Virus record (IMG/VR): IMGVR_UViG_2693429719_000002
Span: 1 to 12,153 of that record
Reading direction: 5' to 3' (one strand)
Length of the DNA stretch: 12,153 nt
DNA from: a virus
Lineage: Duplodnaviria > Heunggongvirae > Uroviricota > Caudoviricetes
The translations under genes were made by a program, and so were the position numbers. This document shows, piece by piece, positions 1 to 12,153 of the stretch. Numbering within the stretch: position 1 is the stretch's first letter; each line of letters begins with the position of its first letter. The notes beneath the pieces are model-generated. The model saw only the letters and a program-made list of their open reading frames with translations. It was not told where the DNA came from and searched no databases.

Positions 1-314
1 TGGGCGTAATTCCGGGAAAGCTGCTCATACGAGACACCCAGCCCGGCAGCGATATACCGCAGCAGTGACTGCTCAAACACGGAGTAGCCGTTATCCGTAT
101 CCTGAGCCGTCTGCAGGTTCAGTGAGTCACCCGGCATCAGGTGCGGTACTTTTGCGCCTCCCAGCCGGACCGGCGCTGCGGCGTAATACGCGGCAATTTC
201 ACCAATCCAGCCGGTCAGCCTTTCCCGCTGCTCCTGACTGTTCGCGCCCAGAATAAAATCCATCGCTGACTGCGTATCCAGCTCACTCTCAATGGTGGCG
301 GCATACATCGCCTT
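1..314 (-). CDS. B: Lambda-type portal protein, C-terminal portion (begins ...KAMYAATIESELDTQSAMDFILGAN...); separated from its N-terminal portion by the insert; runs off the window start
   Basis: Minus-strand translation from 314 downward is open to position 1 and reads as the direct continuation of the portal sequence that stops at the right junction (SAIVKA | MYAAT...). Matches my recollection of lambda gpB; not listed in the ORF track because it touches the window edge. Confidence 0.85.
302..314. other. attL junction: core ATCGCCTT (307..314) within CATACATCGCCTT
   Basis: Same 13-mer with one mismatch occurs at 11230..11242 (CATAAATCGCCTT). The identical 8 bp at 307..314 and 11235..11242 is the likely crossover core. 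Confidence 0.7.
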
Positions 315-388
315 TATGAAAAGACAGGAAAAAATAAAATTTAAAAACAGTACATTACGAATACTCAAACCTATCGTTTAAAGGAGTC

Positions 389-410
389 GCAATACACATT
401 GCAATACACG
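389..410 (+). repeat. Tandem GCAATACAC(A) repeats near attL, putative integrase arm-type binding sites
   Basis: gcaatacacattgcaatacacg at 389..410 is nearly identical to 11084..11105 near the other end, between int and attR. Confidence 0.5.
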
Positions 411-650
411 ATTATTTCTCAGATGAGCGGCAAGCATCCAACAACTATCCGTCATAAAGCTGGTGGATGATCACGGATAAACCGTTATGGGAATCCCCAT
501 ATCGGCATCATGCCCACCAGCGTGGCGCATTTTTTTAATTTCGCGGGTTTAAAAATTTGACGAGGCTGGCGGTCCCATAAGCAATGGGGTGTAGGGATTC
601 CGATCCCCCCGGGGTATTAAACACCCACCCTATTTAAATACCGTCTTTTT

Positions 651-700
651 TGTCACTGTGTGTCACTGGTTGTCACTCTCCGTCACAGTATGTCACCATA
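651..700 (+). repeat. Five phased 10-bp repeats (TGTCACnnnn x5)
   Basis: TGTCAC/CGTCAC at 651, 661, 671, 681 and 691, exactly 10 bp apart, just downstream of the last minus-strand gene. Confidence 0.6.
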
Positions 701-702
701 AG

Positions 703-987
703 TTAACGTCGTAACCGCTCCGGCTTCTTCCACTGGTACGTAATTTTTTCTTTCTCCTGGTACATCTGCACGCGGCGACGGTATGACAACATCTCCAGAA
801 CTCTGCTCCGTATGTCGCGCATATCCACGCCGTTAAGCTCAATACCGTCACGGCGCATCACCTCAGCCACCACACGCGCGTAATTTTCGGCTATCACGCT
901 ATCCGGCTGCGTGGCCTTCTGTTTGCCTGCTGCCTGGCTGGCTCCGGTAATGCAGCGAATCATTTTGAGCATTTCGGCTTCGGTCAT
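703..987 (-). CDS. Hypothetical protein (94 aa from ATG at 987; ORF-track version starts at TTG 1017)
   Basis: ORF in track; GGAGG lies 8 nt upstream of the ATG at 987. No family recognised. Confidence 0.5.
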   Translation of the reverse strand: MTEAEMLKMIRCITGASQAAGKQKATQPDSVIAENYARVVAEVMRRDGIELNGVDMRDIRSRVLEMLSYRRRVQMYQEKEKITYQWKKPERLRR

Positions 988-1024
988 TATCATGGCCTCC
1001 GTGGTGATGGAAAACAATGCCGTA

Positions 1025-1250
1025 ATTGTGGCGGGTCCTTCCTGGAAAATGAAACACCGGGGGTAGCCATACGCGCAATTCTTAACTGTTTATGAAAATT
1101 TTTCGGGAAAAGCCAGATCCGTTCTTCTTCTCTGTAACTCATTGTTTAATGGTAAAATCATCAAAAAAAGAAAGGATCTGACAGTGGTCATTTTGGGCCA
1201 AAAATGACGTTATCAGATCCTTTCTCAGTTTTGTTCAATAATTGCGCGGC
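1025..1250 (+). other. Second cos-like segment in plus orientation: lambda-cosB-like arm with three R-site-like elements carrying CAGATCC instead of CGTTTCC, and a diverged cosN-like segment
   Basis: Plus strand 1080..1250 aligns to the remembered lambda left arm (TTTATGAAAATTTT.CGG, CGTTCTTCTTC, AAAAGAAAGGA, GACAG.G, CCTTTCTC.GTTTTTGT). The position equivalent to cosN reads CGGGGGTAGCCATACGCGC, not GGGCGGCGACCT. Confidence 0.5.
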
Positions 1251-1252
1251 TG

Positions 1253-1780
1253 TCACTCACCTTTCTGTTGCCGTAATTTCTCCGGTACGTTTCCGGTTGT
1301 TTCCATCAGATAATCGGACATCATCAGCGGGATATTTTCATCAAGTTTTGCGCATGCGTTACAGGCTCTGATAACTTCTTTTTTCAGGCCATCCAGCATA
1401 GACGGCTTCATATCGGGAAACTTCCTTATCATGACAAGTGGCAGGCTATCCATGATTGAAGAAATCTGACTCGCCAATTTTGAAAGCACGTATATACAAA
1501 ACGCTGTATCAATAACGTCGCCGCGTTCACGCTCGTTTTTAAGCTCCTGCGCCTCTGCCTGTGCTGTCAGTAATCTGATCCTGACTCGTAGGAGTTCATC
1601 ATCATCAATCTCGCCCGTTTCGTTTGTAATCTGGCTGATTGCATTGTTAACCCGATTATCTATTACACTGGCGACATCATAAAACGCCTCGCGGCCCTTA
1701 CGCTCGACGGGAATCACTCCCCACTTATCGAACGCAGTGGCGCTTACACGGCAACTTTTTGCCATGTTTTTTTTGTTCAT
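1253..1780 (-). CDS. Terminase small subunit, lambda Nu1-like (conserved C-terminal part, divergent N-terminal winged-HTH)
   Basis: C-terminal two-thirds aligns to lambda Nu1 (LLTAQAEAQELKNERERGDVIDTAFCIYVLSKLASQISSIMDSLPL... vs [46 protein letters not shown]...). N-terminus is related but substituted in the putative recognition helix. Start set at the internal ATG (MNKKN, 1780) by alignment with Nu1 MEVNKK. Confidence 0.85.
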   Translation of the reverse strand: MNKKNMAKSCRVSATAFDKWGVIPVERKGREAFYDVASVIDNRVNNAISQITNETGEIDDDELLRVRIRLLTAQAEAQELKNERERGDVIDTAFCIYVLSKLASQISSIMDSLPLVMIRKFPDMKPSMLDGLKKEVIRACNACAKLDENIPLMMSDYLMETTGNVPEKLRQQKGE

Positions 1781-1894
1781 CAGGTGCAATTTCATTGATA
1801 CCACAACTTAATTACTGTTTCAGGTTGGTGTATTGATTGTACTTTTCTCTTATTATTCATGCAGATACAGCGAACAACAAAACCACCACCAGTC

Positions 1895-1990
1895 CCCTTA
1901 AAATGCTCATAAATAGCGAAAACCCGCGAGGTCGCCGCCCCGTAGCCTACCGGATCGCCGGAAAGGACCCGCCAGCCAGAACGGGCCCTA
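1895..1990 (-). other. Lambda-type cos site (cosQ-like sequence, cosN, first ~22 nt of the left arm) upstream of the Nu1-like gene
   Basis: Minus strand reads GGCGGGTCCTTTCCGGCGATCCGGTAGGCTACG GGGCGGCGACCT CGCGGGTTTTCGCTATTTATGA, near-identical to the remembered lambda right end, cosN and left end. Sequence then diverges from lambda cosB (1781..1894). Confidence 0.75.
1929..1940 (-). other. cosN cohesive-end sequence GGGCGGCGACCT (minus-strand reading)
   Basis: Plus strand shows AGGTCGCCGCCC, the exact reverse complement of the lambda 12-nt cohesive end. Confidence 0.75.
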
Positions 1991-1996
1991 ATTTCA

Positions 1997-2380
1997 TCAA
2001 CCAATCAACTTATAGCGACCATCCCGCGCATTGCGACGTACACGCTCAATCTTGAGGCATAGCGCCGCATCTGGCTTTTTTGGGACAGGTACGCGGCAAT
2101 ATTCAGAAGCTCGAGGAATATTGTTTATCCAGTCGATCACTTCACTTAAATACCAGGCCTTACGCCCTTCCGTAACCTGTACGCGTTCGGGGAACTCTCC
2201 GCGAGCCTCAAGGTTTAGCAATGTGCGACGGCTAAGGGTAGTAAGTTCCATCACCTGATTCATATCAACAAGGCGTTCACTTAAACGCATTTTGTCAGCA
2301 ATAGCCTTTAATTCCTCTACTGCTGGATCCGGATACATCATTTCGGCAATTGGCTTAAGGTCATTGTAATGATTCTGCAT
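1997..2380 (-). CDS. AlpA-family helix-turn-helix protein with a ~40-aa N-terminal extension (second AlpA-like gene of the island)
   Basis: Contains MNQVMELTTLSRRTLLNLEARGEFPERVQVTEGRKAWYLSEVIDWI, typical of AlpA/excisionase-type HTH. GGGGG RBS 5 nt upstream of ATG; starts 11 nt after the decoration gene stop. Confidence 0.65.
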   Translation of the reverse strand: MQNHYNDLKPIAEMMYPDPAVEELKAIADKMRLSERLVDMNQVMELTTLSRRTLLNLEARGEFPERVQVTEGRKAWYLSEVIDWINNIPRASEYCRVPVPKKPDAALCLKIERVRRNARDGRYKLIG

Positions 2381-2391
2381 TGTATCCCCCT

Positions 2392-2733
2392 TTACACACG
2401 AGCCAGCGGCTGAACAGAAATACCTGAGCCAACAAACGCGGCAACCTTTGCCGACAGTTCTTTTACAGACTCAGGCCAGTTCAGAGCATCAACATTTAAA
2501 ACACCTGTCTTATAAACCTGTGCCTGTGTTTTTTTCGCTGTGTCGATTTGTACAGCGGAAACATAAACCGCTTTACCTACGCTCGAACCATCCCATACCA
2601 CCAGTGCACCTGTTGCATCTTCCTGCATCAGTGGCGTAAATGCAGGAATTACCCCTTTATTAGCTGAAAATATCCCCAGCGTAGTCACCAGTGCTTCAGT
2701 GCCAGCCATGAGTTCAGTGTAATGAGTAGCCAT
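2392..2733 (-). CDS. Head decoration protein, lambda gpD-like
   Basis: Aligns to lambda gpD (TPLMQEDATGALVVWDGSS vs TPLMLDTSSRKLVAWDGTT; WPESVKELSAKVAAFVGSGISV vs [23 protein letters not shown]). Confidence 0.8.
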   Translation of the reverse strand: MATHYTELMAGTEALVTTLGIFSANKGVIPAFTPLMQEDATGALVVWDGSSVGKAVYVSAVQIDTAKKTQAQVYKTGVLNVDALNWPESVKELSAKVAAFVGSGISVQPLARV

Positions 2734-2742
2734 TGCTCCCCC

Positions 2743-3789
2743 TTAGCCAATGCGAACGGTAACAAAACGATTGATGCGGGCCGGTATTGGCTGTGGTGCT
2801 GAATGTGTCTGCACATATTCAATAGCCGGATCACCAGGCACAATATAGTTTTTCGGTGCAAGTTCGGCTTTAGTCAGCCCCATTCGGATTAGCTCCGGAT
2901 CCTGAATACCGCCATAGGCGACAATCCCCTGAAGAGCCGTATTGCCAAGCACCATCAAATCAGGATCAAGGAAATGTTTTTCTGTTCCGTCCTCGTCGGT
3001 ATAACGCCCGCTGTAAACAACAATCGCAACATCGCCCATATACCCTTTAAAACTCACCGAATCACCAAGGTCTTTAAGGGCCGTTTCCAGTTCGGAATTA
3101 GAACCACGACGGGTATCCAAAGCCTCTTTTATCGCTCTGAATGAACGGTATTTCTTCCATACATTACCACCCATAATGATGATATTAGTGACGCCCTCAC
3201 TAAATTCTGCGTAGCTCTCAATATCATCATTTGGATCAAAAGTTTCTTTATCCTTACCTGACCACTCAGTACCGCCAGACTGAGTGATGATATTTTGTGG
3301 TTTTATATTCCAGTCCAGCTCATAACGTTCAATACCATCGCCCTCAATGATATTTTTCCCCGTTGTGATTGCCTGAACAGCAAGCCATTCAATACGTGCA
3401 CGAATAGCTTTAGCCTGATTTACAATCGCCTGTTTAACTTTAATATTACGCGCCCCAAAAGCATTGTATTGCTCAGGTGACACACCAGCAGGGCGCACAG
3501 CTAACTTATTTGGATCAATGCTGCTTTTCGGCTTCATATAACCTGGACGAATTGTTTTTGATTCGTATCCCTCATCTCGTGAAACTTTACTGCCCACCAT
3601 AGGAGAGCAAAACGCCGCGATCGGGATATTTGGATCGTCGATCGTATCAAGAATAATGTCTCTCGATTCAAACATTACCGAGCGAGTGAAAAACAAACTG
3701 GTAAACAACGCATTTAATTTTTTTTGCACATCTTCAGCATTAGCCACCTGCACAAGCTGTGTAGGCGAATATAAATCAACCATACTCAT
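2743..3789 (-). CDS. Major capsid protein, lambda gpE family
   Basis: Strong similarity to lambda gpE (NIITQSGGTEWSGKDKETFDPNDDIESYA vs NITQSGGTEWSKRDKSTYDPTDDIEAYA; LDTRRGSNSELETALKDLG; GDVAIVVYSG; MVLGNT). Start trimmed to MSMVDLY (3789), AAGAGG RBS adjacent; the ATG at 3783 is an alternative. Confidence 0.9.
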   Translation of the reverse strand: MSMVDLYSPTQLVQVANAEDVQKKLNALFTSLFFTRSVMFESRDIILDTIDDPNIPIAAFCSPMVGSKVSRDEGYESKTIRPGYMKPKSSIDPNKLAVRPAGVSPEQYNAFGARNIKVKQAIVNQAKAIRARIEWLAVQAITTGKNIIEGDGIERYELDWNIKPQNIITQSGGTEWSGKDKETFDPNDDIESYAEFSEGVTNIIIMGGNVWKKYRSFRAIKEALDTRRGSNSELETALKDLGDSVSFKGYMGDVAIVVYSGRYTDEDGTEKHFLDPDLMVLGNTALQGIVAYGGIQDPELIRMGLTKAELAPKNYIVPGDPAIEYVQTHSAPQPIPARINRFVTVRIG

Positions 3790-3954
3790 CCTCTTTACAT
3801 TCATTACAAATAATTGTGAATATATTCTATTACCGATGTCTGCTATGCGAATACATGCAACCAAGTGCAATGTTGTATAAAATATGCCGTAACAACTTCA
3901 GTGCTGATAATTCGTGTTAATGTATTTACTTCCTTTGGTCGGGATTTATGTAGC

Positions 3955-3983
3955 ATGCCGGAAAATCTATTTTTTTCCGGCAT
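3955..3983 (+). terminator. Perfect 11-bp inverted repeat (ATGCCGGAAAA ... TTTTCCGGCAT) followed by CTTTTTGTTTG on the plus strand
   Basis: Read directly; lies in the SSB-capsid intergenic region. T-run follows only on the plus strand, antisense to the operon. Confidence 0.3.
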
Positions 3984-4000
3984 CTTTTTGTTTGCAGAAT

Positions 4001-4423
4001 TTAAAACGGTATATTATCGCCGTACGGATCATCATTCCCCGACTGTTGTTTTGCCCTGTTCAGTGCGTCAGTGGCCTGCCCCTGCTGGCCTTTTTTGCCG
4101 CCCGGTCGCGCCGTTCGCGCACTGATTACGCTGTCTGCGATAACCTGCCAGCCCCGCCGCGTTTCGCCGTTCTGGCCTGTCCACTGGCTTACCTGCATGT
4201 TACCCGCCACGCTCACCAGTTCGCCTTTGTGGTGTCTGGCCAGTGCGTCAGCCTGTCTGCCAAACGCCAGGACGGATAACCACATCGTCGCCGTTCCGTC
4301 ATCTGCCTGGCTGCACGGCAGGGGAACCGCCATACTCGCCATCGCCATTTGTGTCCCTTTGCTGGTGGTCTTTAACTGCGGGTCAGCCACCAGCCGCCCG
4401 TAAGCCGCTATCTGTGCTGTCAT
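4001..4423 (-). CDS. ssb: Single-stranded DNA-binding protein (SSB-like)
   Basis: OB-fold region similar to E. coli SSB (WLSVLAFGRQADALARH..GELVSVAGNMQVSQWTGQNGETR vs [43 protein letters not shown]). Acidic C-terminal tail ends ...DDPYGDNIPF, like DDDIPF. Confidence 0.8.
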   Translation of the reverse strand: MTAQIAAYGRLVADPQLKTTSKGTQMAMASMAVPLPCSQADDGTATMWLSVLAFGRQADALARHHKGELVSVAGNMQVSQWTGQNGETRRGWQVIADSVISARTARPGGKKGQQGQATDALNRAKQQSGNDDPYGDNIPF

Positions 4424-4665
4424 GCTGTCTGCTCTCCGGTTTTAACGTTGATGGTTGTCACCTGTTCCGCTTCGGCAATCTCCCGTTCTGTCAGCGTGGC
4501 AAAGTTTGCCGCCGTCGTGGCCATGAATGCGCTTATCAGTTCGGGATGTGCTTTCGCGTATCCCTCTCCCGCGTTGCGGTCGATGATTTTTATCGCCACC
4601 CTCAGCCAGTGTTCTGTCAAATCAAGGGCGTGAGATTGTGGTTTTTTTGCGTGCTTCGTTGTCAC
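4420..4665 (-). CDS. Hypothetical protein (81 aa, GTG start), translationally coupled to ssb
   Basis: GAGGT lies 7 nt upstream of the GTG; stop overlaps the ssb start (ATGA). No family recognised. Confidence 0.5.
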   Translation of the reverse strand: MTTKHAKKPQSHALDLTEHWLRVAIKIIDRNAGEGYAKAHPELISAFMATTAANFATLTEREIAEAEQVTTINVKTGEQTA

Positions 4666-4699
4666 AGGCTTTACCTCACAGCAATAAAATAAAATTTTT

Positions 4700-4945
4700 G
4701 CATTTTAACCCTTCACCTGTTCACCTTTTGCGATTTTCCCTTTTTATTCATGATGTTAAGGGGTGAACAGTTTCACAAAAACTATTCACCAACTGTTCAC
4801 CACTGTTCACCCTTAAAGCTCAATAAATAATCAAAAAGGTGAACAGTGAATAGTTTGGTGAACAGTTCACAAATAACTGTTCACCCTATAATGTACTGAT
4901 ATAAAAGACATTTATGACAGGGTGAACAGTGGTGAACAGTTATTC
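4700..4945. repeat. Iteron array (about 10 copies of GGTGAACAG / CTGTTCACC in both orientations) in an AT-rich region; putative origin of replication
   Basis: Copies at about 4716, 4762, 4782, 4792, 4803, 4838, 4857, 4878, 4921 and 4931, immediately downstream of the primase-helicase gene. Confidence 0.65.
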
Positions 4946-4952
4946 CATAAGT

Positions 4953-6758
4953 TTAATTTTTTCCATCGTCATTTGTGACCGATGTACATGATGGCATCCA
5001 GTCTTCTGAATCCTCTGTCAGGGTCACATTTGAACGCAAACCGTGCTTCGTTTTCCGTTTCATATACTCCCTGCCATATTCCGCCATTGCCCCCGGCATA
5101 TCTTTACCGAAGCGCGTCAGTGTTACAGGTTTACCGAATCCGTGTGCCCTCATATATGCCAGATAGGCGTGATAAAGATACCTGCGCGGACTGAACGGAA
5201 TAATTTCGGCATTACCCACTAACAGACCATCACACATTACCGACGACATGAGATAGCCGCAGAAGTCCACCAGCGAATCGCCCTCGCGTTTTATCACCAG
5301 AGCTTCTTCTGATTTCTGCTGCTCATACAGCAGGCGTTTAGCTTCGTCCTGGTCAGAAAAACGAGTAAGCAGGTGGCGAATCACAACCGCCAGCTCTCCT
5401 TCTATTTTTTCTGCCAGCATGGGGTCGCGTTCGTTTTCCGGTACAACCTCCGAAAAATTGAATATCACCCGACGACGTGAGATCCCCCCGCTGCGGTCAC
5501 TGAATGACATGGCGTTATTGTTCACCGCCAGCACGACCGCCTGAATGCGTGTTGAGTAGGGAGCTTTATGTTTCGGGTCAATTGCCACCTTGTCACCGCC
5601 TGTAATGGCCTTAATTCCTGCACCATCACCAGCGTAGCGGGTCATATCCGGCATGATAATCAGCGAAAAGCCAACCACTAACGCGCGTTCCCTGGCATCT
5701 TCCAGCGCCTTCATGCTTGCCGACACCGTGTTGGCCTTACCCGCCAGCATGGTGCAAATCTCCGCCATTACGCTTTTACCGCTTCCACCCGGCCCCGTTA
5801 CCTCAAGAAATAACTGCCAGTCGTATCGGTTCGCCAGCACCATGAATAACGCCGCCAGTACGCGATCCGCTTTACGGTCATTCTCTGCCACCGAACGGCG
5901 CAACCATTTCCAGAAATTCGGCGCATGCGTTGCCAGCGTTTCCCCCTCTGCTGGTGGGCTGAACGGTAATTCACTGGCAATTAACAGCCAGTCGTTTTTG
6001 TCATGCTCCCGAAAATCGCCTGTCCGGGTATCAAAAACACCGTTACTGAATCCAATCAGGTTACGGGCGGTATTTCCCATTACGGGCAAACTTAACTTCA
6101 TGGTATCGACCGCCGATTTGATGGCGTTCTGCGAATAACTGATCTCCGCATCAATAAAAATCTGCGCCATAGCCCGCTGTAACTCTTTATCCTGTACCGG
6201 CTCCCATACAACGCCGTTGTAGTGGTGAACTGTGTCAGAGTCCGCATTGATTGCCAGTTCACCGCCATAATGGGCCAGGAGAACTTCGCCGCGCTGGCTT
6301 GCTCCCATCTGGTTAAGCGCCAGTGGTGCGGCGCTGTCTTCTGTTTTTTTCTTAACAGGAAGCTGAATAACCAGACCATCAGAAAGATTCTGGCGCTCAC
6401 GCTCCAGATATTCGCGCCACTCCTCCCGCTTCTGGCTGTGCATTCCCTCAGGGTAATAATTCGCATCCCGTACACCTGCCGCCGCCAGCTTTTGCCCGAT
6501 GGCATTAATATTTGACGGCTTGATGTGGCCTGCCTTGTACAGCCGGACACAATAGCGACCATCGTCGATAATTTTCAGGTCTGCCAGTTCGTCAAGCTGG
6601 CTGTCTCCCAGCCATACAGGCGGAACATTGTCACCAGCAAGTCGCCCGTCCTGCTCCTGCCATTGTTTCGCGTGCGCCCAGGCATCACTACCCGCAAAAA
6701 TAATGACTTCGGTCATTTTGTCGTGCGGCTGTTTTTTTAAGTTCGGTGCCAGTTTCAT
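4953..6758 (-). CDS. Primase-helicase / replication initiator with P-loop NTPase domain
   Basis: 601-aa ORF with Walker A motif (EVTGPGGSGKSVMAEICTML) and an N-terminal primase-like region. Usual position for a satellite replication protein, followed by iterons. Confidence 0.85.
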   Translation of the reverse strand: MKLAPNLKKQPHDKMTEVIIFAGSDAWAHAKQWQEQDGRLAGDNVPPVWLGDSQLDELADLKIIDDGRYCVRLYKAGHIKPSNINAIGQKLAAAGVRDANYYPEGMHSQKREEWREYLERERQNLSDGLVIQLPVKKKTEDSAAPLALNQMGASQRGEVLLAHYGGELAINADSDTVHHYNGVVWEPVQDKELQRAMAQIFIDAEISYSQNAIKSAVDTMKLSLPVMGNTARNLIGFSNGVFDTRTGDFREHDKNDWLLIASELPFSPPAEGETLATHAPNFWKWLRRSVAENDRKADRVLAALFMVLANRYDWQLFLEVTGPGGSGKSVMAEICTMLAGKANTVSASMKALEDARERALVVGFSLIIMPDMTRYAGDGAGIKAITGGDKVAIDPKHKAPYSTRIQAVVLAVNNNAMSFSDRSGGISRRRVIFNFSEVVPENERDPMLAEKIEGELAVVIRHLLTRFSDQDEAKRLLYEQQKSEEALVIKREGDSLVDFCGYLMSSVMCDGLLVGNAEIIPFSPRRYLYHAYLAYMRAHGFGKPVTLTRFGKDMPGAMAEYGREYMKRKTKHGLRSNVTLTEDSEDWMPSCTSVTNDDGKN

Positions 6759-7069
6759 TTTGCCTTTCCCCGTTCACGAATAATTTCACGTACTGCCTTA
6801 ATGCGTTCCATACCTGTAACGCGCATGATTCTGTCGATGTCGCTTAAGTTCGCTGGTGGTGCTTTGCTTACCAGGGTGAATTCACTCTCAAAACGCATAT
6901 GTGACGACACGCAGGGATGCGCATAACCTTCGCGGATATAAGTCACGCGAAAATCGTCAACGGTTTTTATCGTTATTCGTCCGCCGTATTTATCTTTGAA
7001 AATATCGTCGGGGCGGATTTCAGGCCGAGCGGGGCCGCTGGCAGTAAAGCCAGAATTTTTCTTTTTCAT
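6755..7069 (-). CDS. Hypothetical protein (104 aa), translationally coupled to the primase-helicase gene
   Basis: ORF in track; stop overlaps the primase start (ATGA). No family recognised. Confidence 0.55.
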   Translation of the reverse strand: MKKKNSGFTASGPARPEIRPDDIFKDKYGGRITIKTVDDFRVTYIREGYAHPCVSSHMRFESEFTLVSKAPPANLSDIDRIMRVTGMERIKAVREIIRERGKAK

Positions 7070-7075
7070 GTTTTT

Positions 7076-7294
7076 TTACTCCAGAGGCAGCTTTTTAGCG
7101 GCGAGCTCAATATCAGATGTCAGAGAAACCTGTGTATTTGCCAGGTCTAACAACAAAGAAATAAGAATTTCCTCTCTGCTATCGGATTTATCGGTGCTAA
7201 GGCTGTTCATCCACATATTGACGACTTCCCTGATTTTTTTCGCGGAGTGCAGGGCTTCAAATGCCAGGTCTTCAATATCACGTTTATTTCGCAT
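7076..7294 (-). CDS. Hypothetical protein (72 aa from ATG at 7294)
   Basis: ORF in track; start moved to the internal ATG (MRNKRD) preceded by a GGGGG RBS. Confidence 0.45.
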   Translation of the reverse strand: MRNKRDIEDLAFEALHSAKKIREVVNMWMNSLSTDKSDSREEILISLLLDLANTQVSLTSDIELAAKKLPLE

Positions 7295-7529
7295 AATCGC
7301 CCCCACCATTTTCACAATCAACAATCAGGATGGCTTTAGCCTCATTCAGCGCCATATCAGCGGTAAGCTGCACATATGCCAGCGAATGCGGGATTATCGC
7401 CCCTGTATATTCCGGCTCTCTGGTAATGTGTTTTTCTGCGGTTGCTGCCGTGCATGAAATATCAATCAGCGCGTCCATCAGCGTTCTGATGGCTTCGCCT
7501 GCTGCGTCCGGCGTGTTTTTATTGCACAT
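7284..7529 (-). CDS. Hypothetical protein (81 aa)
   Basis: ORF in track; start overlaps the stop of the upstream 68-aa gene; GGGGG RBS upstream. Confidence 0.45.
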   Translation of the reverse strand: MCNKNTPDAAGEAIRTLMDALIDISCTAATAEKHITREPEYTGAIIPHSLAYVQLTADMALNEAKAILIVDCENGGGDYAK

Positions 7530-7725
7530 GGCGCACCCCCTGACGAATACGGGCGGCGAATACCATCACACAGCCATCAGGAGATTGCTGGCGTGCTTCC
7601 TGTTCGCTGGTGGCCTCGATGGTAATCACGCGCGGCTGTGCCGTGCTCAGGGCGATAAAACGCCAGATGTATTTATTCAGGTTGTACGAGTCCCGCCCTT
7701 GCGGGTGTGTGGTATGATTTAACAT
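7522..7725 (-). CDS. Hypothetical protein (68 aa), first gene of the leftward operon
   Basis: Corresponds to the last 68 codons of the 411-aa track ORF 7519..8754. ATG at 7725 has GAGG 5 nt upstream; the upstream part of that long ORF is judged spurious. Confidence 0.5.
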
Positions 7726-7823
7726 AGCTACCTCGATACTTCTGCTATCGTTGGTGGTTAGAAGCCCCGTTACTGCTCCTACAGTGCGGGGTTTCGTCGT
7801 TTCTGCACCTTGCATTAACAAGG

Positions 7824-7900
7824 TGTAAGTAACTTTATTTATAGGTGGCTTACATGTCAATGCTTTTATGTAAGACTTTTTATGTGTATATTGTCTTACA
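7824..7900. promoter_or_regulatory. Divergent promoter region with two ~31-bp operator-like elements (TGTAAG-N19-CTTACA)
   Basis: TGTAAG at 7824 and 7869, CTTACA at 7849 and 7895. A TTGACA -35 for the leftward operon (reverse complement of 7855..7860) abuts the first element. Confidence 0.5.
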
Positions 7901-7921
7901 CTTTCATTGAGAGGATTACAG

Positions 7922-8227
7922 ATGGCTACAGGTTCAAAAAACGCAAAATCACAATCACTGACAGCTCGGATCCCGCATGATGTTATTGAAGGCATGGAAT
8001 CCGTAAAACTGGACGGTGAAAGCAACGCCGGATTCATCGTAACCGCCATGCGCGGTGAAATCGCCCGCCGCCAGGCAGAAGGAAGCGGAGAAAACCTCCT
8101 GGTTTCTTCGCTCGATGCACTGGCGCAGGTGGAAAAAATCGGAGTCAAAGCAGCCGAGGAGATCGGGCAACTCATCACCGTCGCGCGTGAAGAACTCCAG
8201 CGTCGCAAGGCCAAAGAGCAGGAGTAA
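7922..8227 (+). CDS. Small regulatory protein, possibly ribbon-helix-helix type (101 aa)
   Basis: ATG at 7922 with GAGAGGA RBS 6 nt upstream. N-terminal SLTARIPHDVIEGMESV resembles an RHH strand-helix motif (weak, by eye). Sits next to the operator-like repeats. Confidence 0.5.
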   Translation: MATGSKNAKSQSLTARIPHDVIEGMESVKLDGESNAGFIVTAMRGEIARRQAEGSGENLLVSSLDALAQVEKIGVKAAEEIGQLITVAREELQRRKAKEQE

Positions 8228-8284
8228 CCATCACCAGCGCCGTGGTGCGACGAACTGTGGCGCACAGGGTTACAGGTATCTACG

Positions 8285-8482
8285 ATGACTGACAAATCAT
8301 TAAAGAAATTATCCTCATCCAGGAAAAAACAACGCAAAAACGCGGTAAGCGAACAAGAACAGGAAAGATTCGCGCCATGTGCGTTTGTCCTTGAGAAGTT
8401 CCTTAACGAGTACAGGCGCACAAAAATGGGATCGCATACCTGGAAAACATCGCAGCATGGCGATGCTAAAGAGCAGGAATAG
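8285..8482 (+). CDS. Hypothetical small basic protein (65 aa)
   Basis: ORF in track; weak RBS. Its last residues and stop context duplicate those of the upstream gene (AKEQE). Confidence 0.35.
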   Translation: MTDKSLKKLSSSRKKQRKNAVSEQEQERFAPCAFVLEKFLNEYRRTKMGSHTWKTSQHGDAKEQE

Positions 8483-8585
8483 CCCACCAGCAAGCCAGCA
8501 CACTGATCACATTGCCAACCGGATGTAATCACGGCATAGTAATCAGCGCTCATGCGTTGGGGATAACGCGCAATTAGTGTTGAAG

Positions 8586-8613
8586 GGCCACCGTAGCGGG
8601 TGGCCTTTGTTTT
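8586..8613 (+). terminator. Rho-independent terminator (GGCCACC-GTAGC-GGGTGGCC + TTTGTTTT)
   Basis: GC-rich hairpin followed by a T-run, about 100 bp downstream of the plus-strand genes. Confidence 0.6.
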
Positions 8614-8666
8614 GCCTGTTATCCGGCAATTGTGGCGCTTCGTCACACGGTTGATATAATTCCCCT

Positions 8667-8740
8667 GCACTGATCCATTTTTTTCGCAGCAGGTTAATTG
8701 TTCGCAAGGGCGCTCCGGCAACGGGGCGCTTTTTGTTTTT
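8667..8740 (+). ncRNA. Candidate small RNA (~75 nt) between an extended -10 promoter and a strong terminator
   Basis: TGATATAAT at 8652..8660; terminator at 8710..8740; no ORF in the interval. Confidence 0.3.
8710..8740 (+). terminator. Rho-independent terminator (8-bp stem with GCAA loop + TTTTTGTTTTT)
   Basis: GCGCTCCG-GCAA-CGGGGCGC followed by an 11-nt T-rich run. Confidence 0.65.
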
Positions 8741-8898
8741 ACCCACCAGCACAATAAAAATCTTCATTTTCCATTTTTGTAAAATTTCATGCTTTCCGGA
8801 TGGCTGGCCATATGTCATTTTTTAGCAGAAGATTTTGCCTTGCTGGTGGATAGCTTCCCGGTCAACACGATGTACCGTATAATCAGCACCGCGTGTGG

Positions 8899-9477
8899 TT
8901 ACTGAATACGCTCACCAAAGTAAAACTCAGGCTGATATTCACGTATCAGCCTTTTTTCTTCTTCCTCCAGCTCACGCTTTTTGCGCTTACATGCCTGTAG
9001 CTCCCTCCCCTTCTCGCTGGCACTTATCCGGTATTGCTCTTTGCGGCGGGAAAAATCCTGTAATGCGCCCCACGGGATACCATAAGCCCCCGTTTTTCTG
9101 ATACCCGGTATCACATTTCTGAATACCCAATTACTGAAACTATGAGCAAATGTGCCAGGCGTCATTGCTTTGCGGCTACGGGCTATTAGTTTGTAGAAAC
9201 CTGACTCAGAGATAATGCTCATATTCTGATTTCCTCCGGGGGTGTAAGTTAAATTTACTCCCTTTTCATCATCATCAAGCATCTGCAACGCCGTACGCGA
9301 ATTGGTCAGTTCCAGCGCAGCGCAGACATCCTTTGCAACAAACCACGGATCGCCGTTCAGATACACCACGCGAACGTTCACACCATCAAAGCGCAGAACG
9401 ACGAGATCACGAATATCGCAGAATTTTTTCACTGGACGAGCGTACCCCTTGCCCGTCACGGCAATATTTTTATTCAT
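8899..9477 (-). CDS. Bro-N domain protein (putative antirepressor-like)
   Basis: Bro-N signature read by eye: VRVVYLNGDPWFVAKDVCAALEL...SESGFYKLIARSRKAM...FSNWVFRNVIPGIRKTGAY. Confidence 0.8.
   Translation of the reverse strand: MNKNIAVTGKGYARPVKKFCDIRDLVVLRFDGVNVRVVYLNGDPWFVAKDVCAALELTNSRTALQMLDDDEKGVNLTYTPGGNQNMSIISESGFYKLIARSRKAMTPGTFAHSFSNWVFRNVIPGIRKTGAYGIPWGALQDFSRRKEQYRISASEKGRELQACKRKKRELEEEEKRLIREYQPEFYFGERIQ
8929..8958 (+). terminator. Plus-strand hairpin + T6 inside the 3' end of the Bro-N coding region (antisense)
   Basis: AGGCTGATA-TTCACG-TATCAGCCT followed by TTTTTT; a TATAAT at 8878..8883 lies upstream. Confidence 0.4.
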
Positions 9478-9494
9478 CGCGTTTTGACCTTATA

Positions 9495-9520
9495 GACAAA
9501 AAACCCCTCGTAATGAGGGG
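9495..9520 (-). terminator. Rho-independent terminator downstream of alpA (CCCCTC-ATTAC-GAGGGG + TTTTTTG on the minus strand)
   Basis: Hairpin and U-tract begin 14 nt after the alpA stop. Confidence 0.6.
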
Positions 9521-9533
9521 CGTTATTTACTGG

Positions 9534-9791
9534 TTATTGCTGTTTTGTTTTTCCAGGTTTCCATCCAGGATGCCACTCACCACGGATCCACGCCTGAACC
9601 TCTGAAAGTCGATAGCCTGCCGCACGTTCGCCGATCTTGATACGTCGCGGGAATTTACCTGCCTGCTCCATTTTCCAGCGTGTTGAGTTTGCCAGCGTGG
9701 TAAGTGCTATGCATTCTTTTTCACGAATGAACCGATCAATGTCCTTCATTGCGCGCAAATCGTTTTCATCCACAAGAGAATAAATTGTCAT
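9534..9791 (-). CDS. alpA: AlpA-family transcriptional regulator / excisionase-like protein
   Basis: 85-aa HTH protein directly downstream of int (start 1 nt after the int stop); GAGGTGG RBS. Confidence 0.8.
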   Translation of the reverse strand: MTIYSLVDENDLRAMKDIDRFIREKECIALTTLANSTRWKMEQAGKFPRRIKIGERAAGYRLSEVQAWIRGEWHPGWKPGKTKQQ

Positions 9792-9792
9792 A

Positions 9793-11034
9793 TCACACCA
9801 CCTCTTTATTAAGCTCGATAACGTTGTTGTTAAATCCTGCTATCGTATTAAGGTAATTAACCCACATATTAAGCACCTCAAGTTTTTTCTTTATATGCCT
9901 GCTTTTATTGTAAACACCAGCAACCCCTTTCACTTTATGACCCAAAAGAAGTTCGACAATATAAGGATCCGCCCCCATATCATTAAGCATTGTGGAAAAT
10001 GTGCGCCTGAAATCATGTATGCACCACAAGCCATTAGTATCATGACCAAGACGCCTGCATATTCTGTTTGCAGCCCCTGTTATTGTCGCCCTTTGCAAAG
10101 CACAACCGACAACATAACCGCGATTCTTTGTTTCTGCGTAAAGATTAACGATCCATTGTTTTATACCGTCAGGAACGGGCCTTACTATGGCCTCACCGTT
10201 TTTGCTGTGCTCTTTTGGGACTGTCCATACCCAGTTTTTTAAATCCCATTCTTCCCAGGTGGATAACCTCGCCTCCTGCTGTCGACAACCAAACGCCAGG
10301 CATATCACCATAATTCTTCGGTTATGTATCGATGAGAGAGTAAGCAAATTATTTCCATAAGCATACGACCATACATCAGCAGTTTCATTGATGCTAAGAA
10401 CGCGATCCCGTATACCGGACGAGCGGCCTACATAACTTACATTAATGTCTCCAAATGGATCGCAAGCGATATATTGCCTGACGCGACAAAACCGCAACGC
10501 CTGTTTAATATCAAGAAAAATTGCACCAGACATAACAGGCGCATTTTTTTTAATCCTGTCAAAGACGGTAAGCCATGTGTGTAATTTGCACTGTTCTATG
10601 GCCATATCGCCGATATAGGGGAATATATGCTTTTCAAATCGTTTTATTAAATATTCATGCTCTTTTCTGGCTGTTGTGGCGTGATTGTCGTACCAGTAAA
10701 ACAGCGCATCCCTTACGGTCACTGGTTGCATAGTTTTTTCGGCAGCAAGTTTTATTTGCCTGCGGGGGTCCAGATTTTCAGCCAGCCATTCACGGCACTG
10801 ATCACGCATGCGCCTGGCAGTTGCAAGAGACATGTCAGGATAGCGACCAAGTGTAAGCCATACCGGAGGGGATTTCCTGCCACCAAGACGATAGTAAAAA
10901 ACAAAGCTTATCCCCCCGACCATGCTTACACGCACAGACAGCCCGCGACCATCCGCTATTGTTTTTTGTTTGTCCTGTCGTTTTCCGGCAAGACTCTTTA
11001 ACAGTTTGTCGCTGAGTTTGTTTTCAATAGCCAT
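9793..11034 (-). CDS. int: Tyrosine-type site-specific integrase (P4-like)
   Basis: 413 aa; C-terminal catalytic motifs HDFRRTF ... LLGHKVKGVAGVYNKS (H-x-x-R ... Y); sits next to the element end. Confidence 0.95.
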   Translation of the reverse strand: MAIENKLSDKLLKSLAGKRQDKQKTIADGRGLSVRVSMVGGISFVFYYRLGGRKSPPVWLTLGRYPDMSLATARRMRDQCREWLAENLDPRRQIKLAAEKTMQPVTVRDALFYWYDNHATTARKEHEYLIKRFEKHIFPYIGDMAIEQCKLHTWLTVFDRIKKNAPVMSGAIFLDIKQALRFCRVRQYIACDPFGDINVSYVGRSSGIRDRVLSINETADVWSYAYGNNLLTLSSIHNRRIMVICLAFGCRQQEARLSTWEEWDLKNWVWTVPKEHSKNGEAIVRPVPDGIKQWIVNLYAETKNRGYVVGCALQRATITGAANRICRRLGHDTNGLWCIHDFRRTFSTMLNDMGADPYIVELLLGHKVKGVAGVYNKSRHIKKKLEVLNMWVNYLNTIAGFNNNVIELNKEVV

Positions 11035-11052
11035 TAACAGCCCTCAAGAGAT

Positions 11053-11106
11053 TTGCAATACACACCCATCCCGATCGCCAATTTGCAATACACATTGCAA
11101 TACACA
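11053..11106 (+). repeat. Three TTGCAATACACA repeats between int and attR, putative arm-type integrase sites / int promoter region
   Basis: Copies at 11053, 11083 and 11095; the last two form the same 22-mer found at 389..410. Confidence 0.5.
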
Positions 11107-11182
11107 AAACCGCGAAAAACCGGAATAGTGGTGAACGGTCATCAAAAGTATGGAAAACGACATTCCAGACGCAGCAAGGGTT

Positions 11183-12064
11183 TTAGTGGAGTTGGCGAAC
11201 GATGCGGACAACTACGGTGAGATGATAGACATAAATCGCCTTCACAATGGCGCTCTGCAGCTGCGTGTTCTGCAGCGTGTCGAGCATCTTCATCTGCTCC
11301 ATCACGCTGTAAAACACATTTGCACCGCGGGTCTGCCCGTCCTCCACGGGTTCAAAAACGTGAATGAACGAGGTGCGCCCGCCGGGTAACTCACGGGGCA
11401 TCCATGTCCATTTCTGCGGCATCCAGCCAGGATACCCGTCCTCGCTGACGTAATATCCCAGCGCCGCGCCGCTGTCATTAATCTGCACACCGGCACGGCA
11501 GTTCCGGCTGTCGCCGGTATTGTTCGGGTTGCTGATACGCTTCGGGCTGACCATCCGGAACTGTGTCCGGAACAGTCGCGAGGGACTGGTATCCCAGGTG
11601 GCCTGAACGAACAGTTCACCGTTAAAGGCGTGCATGGCCACACCTTCCCGAATCATCATGGTAAACGTGCGTTTTCGCTCAACGTCAATGCAGCAGCAGT
11701 CATCCTCGGCAAACTCTTTCCATGCCGCTTCAACCTCGCGGGAAAAGGCACGGGCTTCTTCCTCCCCGATGCCCAGATAGCGCCAGCTTGGGCGATGACT
11801 GAGCCGGAAAAAAGATCCGACGATATGATCCTGATGCAGCTGGATGGCGTTGGCGGCATAGCCGTTATTGCGTACCAGATCGTCTGCGCGGGCATTGCCA
11901 CGGGTAAAGTTGGGCAACAGGGCTGCATCCACACTTTCACCCGGTGGGTTCCACGCCCGCAACTGCCCTCCAAATCCGCTGCCACCGCCGTGATAACCGG
12001 CATATTCGCGCAGCGATGTCATGCCGTCCGGCCCCAGAAGGGTGGGAATGGTGGACGTTTTCAT
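11183..12064 (-). CDS. B: Lambda-type portal protein, N-terminal portion; ends in 17 element-derived codons after ...SAIVKA
   Basis: 293-aa ORF starting [34 protein letters not shown], near-identical to remembered lambda gpB. Homology stops at the core, then reads [17 protein letters not shown] and terminates. Confidence 0.9.
11230..11242. other. attR junction: core ATCGCCTT (11235..11242) within CATAAATCGCCTT
   Basis: Direct repeat of 302..314 with one mismatch at the fifth base. Confidence 0.7.
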
Positions 12065-12153
12065 ACATAAAATCCTGCAGGTCCCCTGCGTCGCTGTGTC
12101 ATGCCGGTCTGCACTTCCAGCTCCGCAATGTATTTTTTCAGGTCAGACACGGA
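12061..12153 (-). CDS. W: Head-tail joining protein W, C-terminal part (runs off the window end); stop overlaps the portal start
   Basis: Minus-strand translation ...[30 protein letters not shown] matches the remembered lambda gpW C-terminus. Has the lambda-like GTATGA overlap with the B start. Confidence 0.8.

Follow-up and report, generated by a model that had tools for sequence, protein, structure and literature searches.

Known helper-embedded satellites and the portal-site insertion

Helper-embedded PICIs (HE-PICIs) have been described at 14 late-gene sites of prophages (Tommasini, Mageeney & Williams 2023, NAR Genom Bioinform 5:lqad036; PMC10111431). One of these sites, B:Phage_portal_2:241, has aaggcgat as its identity block, which is ATCGCCTT in reverse complement, and about 76 mapped members, whose helpers form composites of about 59-60 kb (PMC10111431). 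Many HE-PICI helpers look truncated, and the authors read the whole group as a case of "regulated gene integrity", for which the literature cited there gives sporulation and DNA replication fidelity as examples (PMC10111431).

The founding HE-PICI, Eco567.11capE, lies in the E (capsid) gene of 50icd, a prophage of E. coli NRG857c. After induction the composite excises and replicates, and then the satellite excises, as followed by qPCR and deep sequencing (PMC10111431). 11capE, which sits at a capsid-gene site, is the only member with induction and excision data; its virions could not be recovered by the authors, and transfer of HE-PICIs is still unproven (PMC10111431).

The portal-site arrangement and its excision-restorable reading have been known since 2023. 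An earlier note on the DNA studied here knew of no described satellite targeting the portal gene of its helper; its premise of novelty fails, as B:Phage_portal_2:241 was published in that year (PMC10111431). We are confident that the window analysed here (a whole contig of 12,153 bp, in which only the portal and gpW ends of the helper are seen) is an HE-PICI of this site group, placed inside the portal gene (the cognate of lambda B) of a lambdoid prophage and running in the same direction as that gene. The record CYGH01000022.1 (GCA_001286465.1) was not found among the examined entries of the supplementary lists of PMC10111431. The features of the window are as follows.

1-306, -, portal gene (lambda B cognate), fragment on the C-terminal side, truncated at the contig end (in-frame join; Pfam Phage_portal_2 for the joined protein, E=1.8e-86)
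307-314, core/identity block ATCGCCTT, late-zone-side junction, attR in the orientation of the island (one of two copies; published attR 153/154)
389-408, -, first copy of the HE-PICI doubled motif, TGTATTGCAATGTGTATTGC (exact match)
703-1017, -, hypothetical protein, last late-zone gene (phrog_1561, E=9.2e-49, function unknown)
1253-1795, -, small terminase subunit of the lambda Nu1 family, the satellite's terS (Pfam Phage_Nu1, E=1.3e-24; called in the source record, 180 aa)
1900-1972, -, cos site, with the exact lambda cosN 12-mer GGGCGGCGACCT at 1929-1940
1997-2380, -, second AlpA-like HTH regulator, late zone (Pfam Phage_AlpA, E=1.4e-08; phrog_2790, E=1.8e-48)
2392-2733, -, head decoration protein, lambda D family (Pfam HDPD, E=4.1e-15)
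2743-3783, -, major capsid protein, lambda E family, the satellite's own copy (Pfam Phage_cap_E, E=3.8e-41)
4001-4423, -, single-strand DNA-binding protein (Pfam SSB, E=1.2e-15)
4420-4665, -, hypothetical protein (phrog_1231, E=2.4e-48)
4716-4941, probable replication origin just downstream of the primase gene, about 9-10 iterons GGTGAACAGT in both orientations (repeat families D1/D2, 24 inverted pairs)
4953-6758, -, primase/helicase (Pfam D5_N, DUF5906 and Pox_D5; E=9.6e-14, 1.1e-10 and 7.1e-13)
6755-7069, -, DUF4222 protein (Pfam, E=7.6e-18)
7076-7529, -, two small overlapping hypothetical genes, 7076-7294 and 7284-7529 (gene calls; phrog_2196 and phrog_5146, function unknown)
7519-7725, -, Icd-like protein, P4 Icd family (NCBIfam phage_ICD_like, E=1e-19; phrog_6196, E=4.1e-44, labelled "transcriptional repressor" in PHROGs)
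7860-7832, -, promoter-like site upstream of the Icd-like gene (sequence scan)
7922-8227, +, YlcI/YnfO family protein, the sole clearly divergent gene (NCBIfam YlcI_YnfO_N, E=7e-20)
8899-9477, -, Bro-N domain protein, anti-repressor-like, "Bro zone" (Pfam Bro-N, E=2.2e-19; phrog_2593, E=5.1e-84)
9503-9521, -, terminator-like hairpin and T-run directly after alpA (consensus scan only)
9534-9791, -, AlpA, excisionase/transcription factor family (Pfam Phage_AlpA, E=4.7e-14)
9793-11034, -, tyrosine integrase with arm-binding domain (Pfam Arm-DNA-bind_3, E=1e-17; Phage_integrase, E=1.4e-14)
11055-11062, extra single half-site of the doubled motif (exact match)
11085-11104, -, HE-PICI doubled motif, copy 2 (exact match)
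11235-11242, core/identity block ATCGCCTT, integrase-side junction, attL in the orientation of the island (second of two copies; published attL 160/163)
11243-12064, -, portal gene, N-terminal fragment; the ORF runs on to 11183 with 17 island-encoded residues and a stop (ORF calls, join, Pfam)
12061-12153, -, helper gpW gene, 3' end, cut by the contig end (Pfam gpW on a 30-aa partial product)

Junctions and the joined portal frame

The core ATCGCCTT occurs exactly twice on the + strand, once at each junction, and zero times on the - strand of the whole window. The repeat extends imperfectly to CATA[C/A]ATCGCCTT, and on the - strand the core reads aaggcgat, the identity block. The element proper spans 315-11242, or 10,928 bp with one core copy counted. 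The island of about 10.9 kb proposed by the earlier note stands, with its limits amended from 302-11242.

The same note had the portal ORF in two - strand pieces that share a core and join in frame, and this was borne out. The ORF 11183-12064 encodes 293 aa (the N-terminal part of the portal protein, 17 island-encoded codons and a stop), and 1-314 carries on the C-terminal part. When 1-314 is joined to 11243-12153, an uninterrupted 378-aa frame without a stop results, whose sole cut is the contig end. The joined protein is of the lambda-B-type and matches Phage_portal_2 over residues 32-377. As was also noted, an integrase gene adjoins the right junction.

Additionally, we assembled an in silico "empty site" of 159 nt from both flanks; it is 100% identical, over 100% of its length, to annotated intact portal genes. 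With a match required to cover at least 80% of the 159 nt, it was found in 3119 of 5426 complete E. coli genomes. The core, the in-frame join and the natural empty-site matches together indicate that the breakpoints are exact and that the repeat did not arise by chance. Within the attachment region there is no replacement for the portal sequence. The junctions, the Pfam and empty-site matches and the satellite gene set support the view that the helper morphogenesis gene is reversibly disrupted and that precise excision would restore the portal ORF.

The published attachment sites of one member, Eco10269.11.B_Phage_portal_2_241, are 98-99% identical to those of the window: attL (163 nt) matches 11136-11298 at 160/163 positions, and attR (154 nt) matches 212-365 at 153/154. 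The site group and the window also share the target gene, the codon position, the 8-bp identity block, the doubled TGTATTGC motif pair, the orientation relative to the late operon, a length of about 11 kb and a four-zone gene order. The integrase-side junction recurs in 62 complete E. coli genomes, and in L001 and L003 the island is flanked by full lambdoid late operons.

These matches bear on the reading that a chromosomal PICI was falsely joined to prophage portal fragments during assembly. The contig is indeed short, and both its ends lie in repeated prophage late genes. However, a chimeric contig is unlikely given the identical junction in the 62 complete genomes; moreover, the junctions agree with independently published attL and attR, and the flanks join into the sequence of real portal genes. 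An assembly artefact is effectively refuted, and we regard its probability as negligible.

Doubled motifs and the integrase

Two co-oriented exact copies of the doubled motif, tgTGTATTGCantgTGTATTGCa, lie at 389-408 and 11085-11104, where 0 are expected by chance. They are probably integrase arm-type or AlpA sites. From the core centre to the near edge of the 20-mer we measured 78.5 nt for the former and 134.5 nt for the latter; the published distances from the attP centre are 81±2 upstream and 132±2 downstream (PMC10111431). The upstream distance departs from the published one by 2-3 nt, the exact figure varying with the definition of the centre, and the offset probably reflects a differing definition of the attP centre. 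The two distances sum to 213, which equals the published sum, and 210 nt separate the full 23-nt motifs. The integrase is 53% identical to that of 11capE over its full length (E=1e-169) in a pairwise comparison, and is a candidate member of the single integrase clade of the HE-PICIs; that the window belongs to the site group is clear from its att sequences.

Gene content of the satellite

The insert, with its int, alpA and primase genes, has the orientation of the portal and gpW genes. Its genes follow the order integration, Bro, replication and late zone, matching the published one, and in the replication zone of the family origins colocalise with primase, SSB and DUF5906 genes (PMC10111431). 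In general, the island has what is expected of a Gram-negative PICI (about 10-15 kb; int, alpA, primase/origin and a packaging/capsid module). No terminator-like site was predicted between the portal fragment and int. The cos region is 93% identical to that upstream of nohD/Nu1 of the L001 helper, and also to that of about 50 lambdoid phage records, and the E-like capsid protein shares 42% identity with the E protein of a helper prophage. Neither tail or holin genes nor recognisable defence cargo appeared among the called island ORFs (Pfam, PHROGs).

Much of this set is shared with 11capE, which likewise has int, an alpA-type HTH gene, YlcI, Icd-like, DUF4222, primase, SSB, E-like and D-like genes and an AlpA-like HTH gene. 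11capE differs in its target (E:Phage_cap_E:80), in its HEPN and DUF262 cargo and in being without terS (PMC10111431), whereas the window element has a Nu1-like terS and a portal target. Classical Gram-negative PICIs, among them EcCICFT073 (Fillol-Salom et al. 2018, 2019, as cited in the literature), likewise have an int-alpA-primase backbone, are cos-packaged by lambdoid helpers and have captured late genes. They occupy chromosomal sites and meet the helper in trans only, in contrast to the window element, which does so in cis, inside the helper portal gene.

Some of the genes could also point to a P4-type satellite, a cf-PICI or a small nested prophage instead of a classical PICI-type element: a P4-like integrase with an arm-binding domain, a primase of the P4 alpha/D5 type, and Icd-like, capsid and decoration genes. 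The architecture and attachment features are, however, those of HE-PICIs, and we find this group of alternatives highly improbable. Among the scanned island ORFs, none was named sid, psu, delta or epsilon (Pfam, PHROGs, NCBIfam). In the SatelliteFinder description, the P4-like core set reportedly combines int, alpA and the alpha primase with sid, psu and delta, which act in capsid sizing and transactivation. A P4-like satellite was rejected, as only the Icd-like gene and the D5-type primase are in common among the scanned ORFs. The markers of cf-PICIs are portal, head-tail connector and adaptor genes of their own (PMC10085698). A cf-PICI was rejected too: the head and packaging proteins of the island are capsid, decoration and TerS only, and the called ORFs of the 10.9 kb include no portal, protease, head-tail adaptor/connector, tail or lysis genes.

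What sets the HE-PICI assigned here apart from its nearest copies in complete E. coli genomes is the Bro/regulatory zone (6770-8897), a mosaic of modules that occur in other E. coli genomes, in stretches with Icd-like, YlcI/YnfO and DUF4222 annotations. Among complete E. coli genomes, the closest ones have a frameshifted Bro-N gene in the island. This shows that members of the group do decay, and it speaks for a rival reading in which the element, a genuine HE-PICI by descent, is fixed in a defective prophage remnant, never excises productively and just marks an inactivated portal gene, with no regulatory role. The frequent truncation of HE-PICI helpers (PMC10111431) fits this as well, and the contig stops in portal and gpW and covers none of the immunity, replication and lysis modules of the helper. 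On the other hand, every satellite ORF in the window is full length, Bro-N included, and the att cores and doubled motifs are intact; the composite size of the site-group helpers fits a full-size lambdoid prophage. Fixation is a possibility to be taken seriously, though clearly the less likely one.

Proposed cycle and its implications

If the HE-PICI is functional, its cycle can be outlined from the family description and from the experiments on the capsid-site relative 11capE. Upon induction, the helper-satellite composite would excise and replicate, and late transcription of the helper through A-W-B' would read on into int-alpA. Int and AlpA would then recombine the ends at AAGGCGAT, releasing the satellite and making the portal gene whole. 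The circular satellite may replicate from the iteron origin with its own primase and SSB. For packaging, it would use its own lambda-type cos and Nu1-like TerS together with the large terminase of the helper, and in its heads the E-like and D-like proteins of the satellite would be combined with the portal, protease/scaffold, connectors and tail supplied by the helper. Since a portal gene is missing from the satellite itself, its excision would be a checkpoint for both partners.

As in other cases of regulated gene integrity, the attachment site has no replacement sequence, so integration breaks the gene and precise excision mends it. Here, unlike in those cases, the broken gene is part of a second mobile element, the helper phage, and it is presumably the satellite, not the cell, that is served by the regulation. 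Helper-embedded satellites show that an integrase clade can specialise on the genes of another mobile element, which ties the satellite life cycle in cis to the transcription of the helper's late genes and to helper replication. With the window, the family gains one more member that looks intact, has a variant regulatory zone and brings its own terS and cos, and that could serve for work on portal-site excision kinetics, virion recovery and capsid composition.

We also considered that insertion at the portal site might go beyond passive delay and act as a two-step interference, a mechanism undescribed so far and, in our estimate, quite unlikely. Before excision, late transcription of the helper would yield the 293-aa portal fragment (residues 1-276 plus the 17-residue island tail), which could poison or seed assembly of the helper procapsid. 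After excision, the E/D-type shell of the satellite would assemble on the restored helper portal. Such interference, if true, would be specific to portal-site HE-PICIs.

The interrupted portal gene

The 8-bp core ATCGCCTT is found in two exact copies in the window, at 307–314 and 11235–11242, and an exact search of the whole window showed it to be absent from the opposite strand. The repeat can be extended imperfectly as CATA[C/A]ATCGCCTT. On either side of the island, the following parts of the portal gene were recognized:

11183–12064, minus strand: N-terminal part of a lambda-type portal ORF (293 aa), which continues for 17 codons of unrelated sequence before a stop just within the insert
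1–314, minus strand: continuation of the portal frame, in the same frame once the flanks are joined

In silico removal of 315–11242 yields an unbroken 378-aa frame that is stopped by the contig edge alone, and the rejoined protein matches the Pfam family Phage_portal_2 (E=1.8e-86). The portal ORF in two pieces, the shared core and the in-frame join described in the earlier note are thus all confirmed. The comparison it had proposed with prophages lacking the insert gave a concordant result: a 159-nt "empty site" built from both flanks is 100% identical over its full length to annotated intact portal genes and is matched, at a coverage of at least 80%, in 3119 out of 5426 complete E. coli genomes. 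Since the flanks match intact portal genes at 100%, the breakpoints are exact. The right end of the originally proposed extent (302–11242) stands, while the left end has to be moved, and the element proper spans 315–11242 (10,928 bp including one core copy).

No replacement portal sequence is present in the attachment region. Together with the exact junctions and the in-frame join, this supports the interpretation that a second mobile element disrupts the portal gene in a manner restorable by excision. Mis-assembly is effectively excluded: identical junctions are present both in complete genomes and in published att alignments, and the flanks correspond to intact portal genes. In the integrated state, a truncated portal is predicted, in which residues 1–276 are joined to a 17-residue island-encoded tail and a stop (11183–11242).

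Gene content of the island

The recognizable island genes are arranged in the order integration, Bro, replication and late zone, and with one exception they share the minus-strand orientation of the portal gene.

Features of the island
Integration zone
9793–11034, minus: tyrosine integrase with arm-binding domain
9534–9791, minus: AlpA
9503–9521: terminator-like hairpin after the AlpA gene
Bro/regulatory zone
8899–9477, minus: Bro-N protein, intact, 192 aa
7922–8227, plus: YlcI/YnfO gene, divergent
7519–7725, minus: Icd-like gene
minus: two further small genes, function unassigned
Replication zone
6755–7069, minus: DUF4222
4953–6758, minus: primase, D5_N/DUF5906/Pox_D5
4716–4941: cluster of about 10 GGTGAACAGT iterons
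minus: small gene, function unassigned
4001–4423, minus: SSB
Late zone
2743–3783, minus: capsid gene, lambda-E family
2392–2733, minus: decoration gene, lambda-D family
1997–2380, minus: second AlpA-like gene
1900–1972: cos site
1253–1795, minus: small terminase gene, Nu1 family (terS)
703–1017, minus: phrog_1561 gene, function unassigned

The satellite gene set is intact in the window and provides a cos site, terS, an origin and capsid genes of its own; portal, protease, connector, tail and lysis genes were not found in the island. This content is that of a PICI-type satellite, which agrees with the "satellite-like island" suspected from sequence reading, and the integrase indeed lies beside one end. 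A P4-like satellite was rejected, the names sid, psu and delta having been assigned to none of the ORFs scanned, and a capsid-forming PICI (cf-PICI) because the portal and connectors are missing.

Within the cos site, the exact lambda cosN 12-mer GGGCGGCGACCT is located at 1929–1940. The surrounding segment (1900–1972) shows 93% identity to the cos region of a helper prophage in E. coli GZEC065 and to about 50 lambdoid phage records.

The stretch from the portal fragment to int contains no predicted terminator. An Rfam scan at E<=1 gave no match to C4 or isrK, the P4-type immunity RNAs that have been reported for some HE-PICIs (helper-embedded PICIs; Tommasini, Mageeney & Williams 2023, PMC10111431). 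Sub-threshold hits involved eukaryotic miRNA/snoRNA models only; those to the plant microRNA precursors MIR821 and MIR5380 (4732–4912) fall in the iteron-rich origin and were dismissed as artefacts of the numerous inverted repeats there. In the non-coding part of the Bro zone, the plus strand of 8560–8760 carries two strong hairpins followed by T-runs (8583–8608 and 8706–8733). They occupy the position of P4-type immunity RNAs in some relatives, lack an Rfam C4/isrK match, and lie under a long, probably spurious 411-aa ORF (7519–8754, minus).

Relation to published HE-PICIs

The HE-PICIs described so far use 14 sites, which are distributed over cognates of nine late genes of lambda; B (portal) holds three of the confirmed sites. 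Their insertion has been read as "regulated gene integrity" that serves the satellite (PMC10111431). The supplement of that study lists a site group B:Phage_portal_2:241 with the identity block "aaggcgat", identical to the window core when read on the complementary strand; about 76 entries of the group appear in the attL (integrase-side) and attR (late-zone-side) alignments. For the entry Eco10269.11.B_Phage_portal_2_241, the published attL shares 160 of 163 positions with window 11136–11298, and the attR 153 of 154 with 212–365.

The HE-PICI-specific doubled motif tgTGTATTGCantgTGTATTGCa is present in two exact co-oriented copies (389–408 and 11085–11104), whereas chance alone would give none. 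The distances between the core centres and the near edges of the 20-mers are 78.5 and 134.5 nt; the published values are 81±2 and 132±2 (PMC10111431). The published description includes two doubled copies only, whereas the window has an additional, fifth TGTATTGC half-site at 11055–11062; it has the same orientation as the integrase-side doubled motif and is located 22 nt away from it, towards int.

Over its full length, the window integrase shares 53% identity with the integrase of 11capE, the founding HE-PICI in capsid gene E of E. coli NRG857c, and the four-zone gene order is the same as in the HE-PICIs of PMC10111431. The late zone of 11capE closes with HEPN and DUF262 genes that are likely defence cargo (9737–11453 of the NRG857c locus, L004), whereas the window island has terS and the phrog_1561 gene at this position and no recognizable defence cargo.

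Taken together, att identity, identity block, doubled motif, integrase and gene order place the element, as judged from its sequence, in a family and a site group (B:Phage_portal_2:241) that have already been described. The premise that no known satellite targets its helper's portal gene consequently fails, this group having been published in 2023 (PMC10111431). The contig itself (CYGH01000022.1, GCA_001286465.1) was not found among the entries listed in those portions of the supplementary tables that were accessible. The window element is thus at most one more intact-looking HE-PICI, usable for experiments still missing for the family.

Proposed excision and packaging

After mitomycin C treatment of the 11capE strain, the whole composite excises and replicates, and the satellite then excises in 42–98% of copies; no 11capE virions were recovered (PMC10111431). 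With 11capE as the tested relative, we infer excision, replication and packaging for the window element as follows. Transcription of the helper late genes would run into int-alpA, and recombination at AAGGCGAT by Int and AlpA would make the portal gene whole again. The satellite could then replicate from its own iterons and be packaged from the satellite cos by the satellite TerS together with the helper large terminase. Heads would be formed from the satellite E-like and D-like proteins on the helper portal and tail; the E-like capsid protein is 42% identical to helper E. Having no portal gene of its own, the satellite would depend on restoring the gene it interrupts.

Occurrence and the helper prophage

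The window is a whole draft contig (12,153 bp) that ends in the C-terminal part of the portal gene and in gpW. The assembly probably broke here because the genome holds further copies of this prophage sequence; the strain would then be expected to contain more than one lambdoid prophage. With the helper lying beyond the contig, and many HE-PICI helpers appearing truncated (PMC10111431), the island might be an "abandoned" copy sitting in a defective helper. We consider this rather unlikely, as its ORFs and att features are intact and point to a functional element. Two complete genomes were inspected, those of GZEC065 and SCEC020022; in each, the island interrupts the portal gene of a helper with a complete late operon (Nu1-A-W-[B]-C-D-E-FI-FII-Z-U-V-G-T-H-M-L-K-I-J).

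The integrase-side junction (406-nt query) was covered to at least 80% in 62 out of 5426 complete E. coli genomes. In about 3180 genomes the match begins at the core and is limited to the portal half of the query. We also searched 50,697 phage records for a helper-satellite composite or a free satellite sequenced from virions. None covers more than 14% of the island, and the match to lambdoid phages is confined to the 73–80-nt cos segment.

The zone 6770–8897 differs from the nearest complete E. coli copies and is a mosaic of modules that occur elsewhere among E. coli genomes, where the stretches concerned carry the same Icd-like/YlcI/DUF4222 annotations. On sequence comparison, this fits the "dynamic zone" of PMC10111431. 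The closest complete copies have a Bro-N gene with an annotated frameshift (23811–24387 of the GZEC065 locus, L001; 25811–26387 of the SCEC020022 locus, L003).

The helper in GZEC065 and SCEC020022 carries iss, an increased serum survival lipoprotein gene (L001 30563–30856). A block of transporter, LysR and gamma-glutamylcyclotransferase genes lies between hokD and more prophage-type genes (L001 38262–41043; L003 40261–46511) and may represent cargo within the helper prophage. Chromosomal-looking genes follow hokD in GZEC065, which could suggest a truncated helper, and in SCEC020022 prophage-type genes (DUF977, YdaT family) are located beyond the block.
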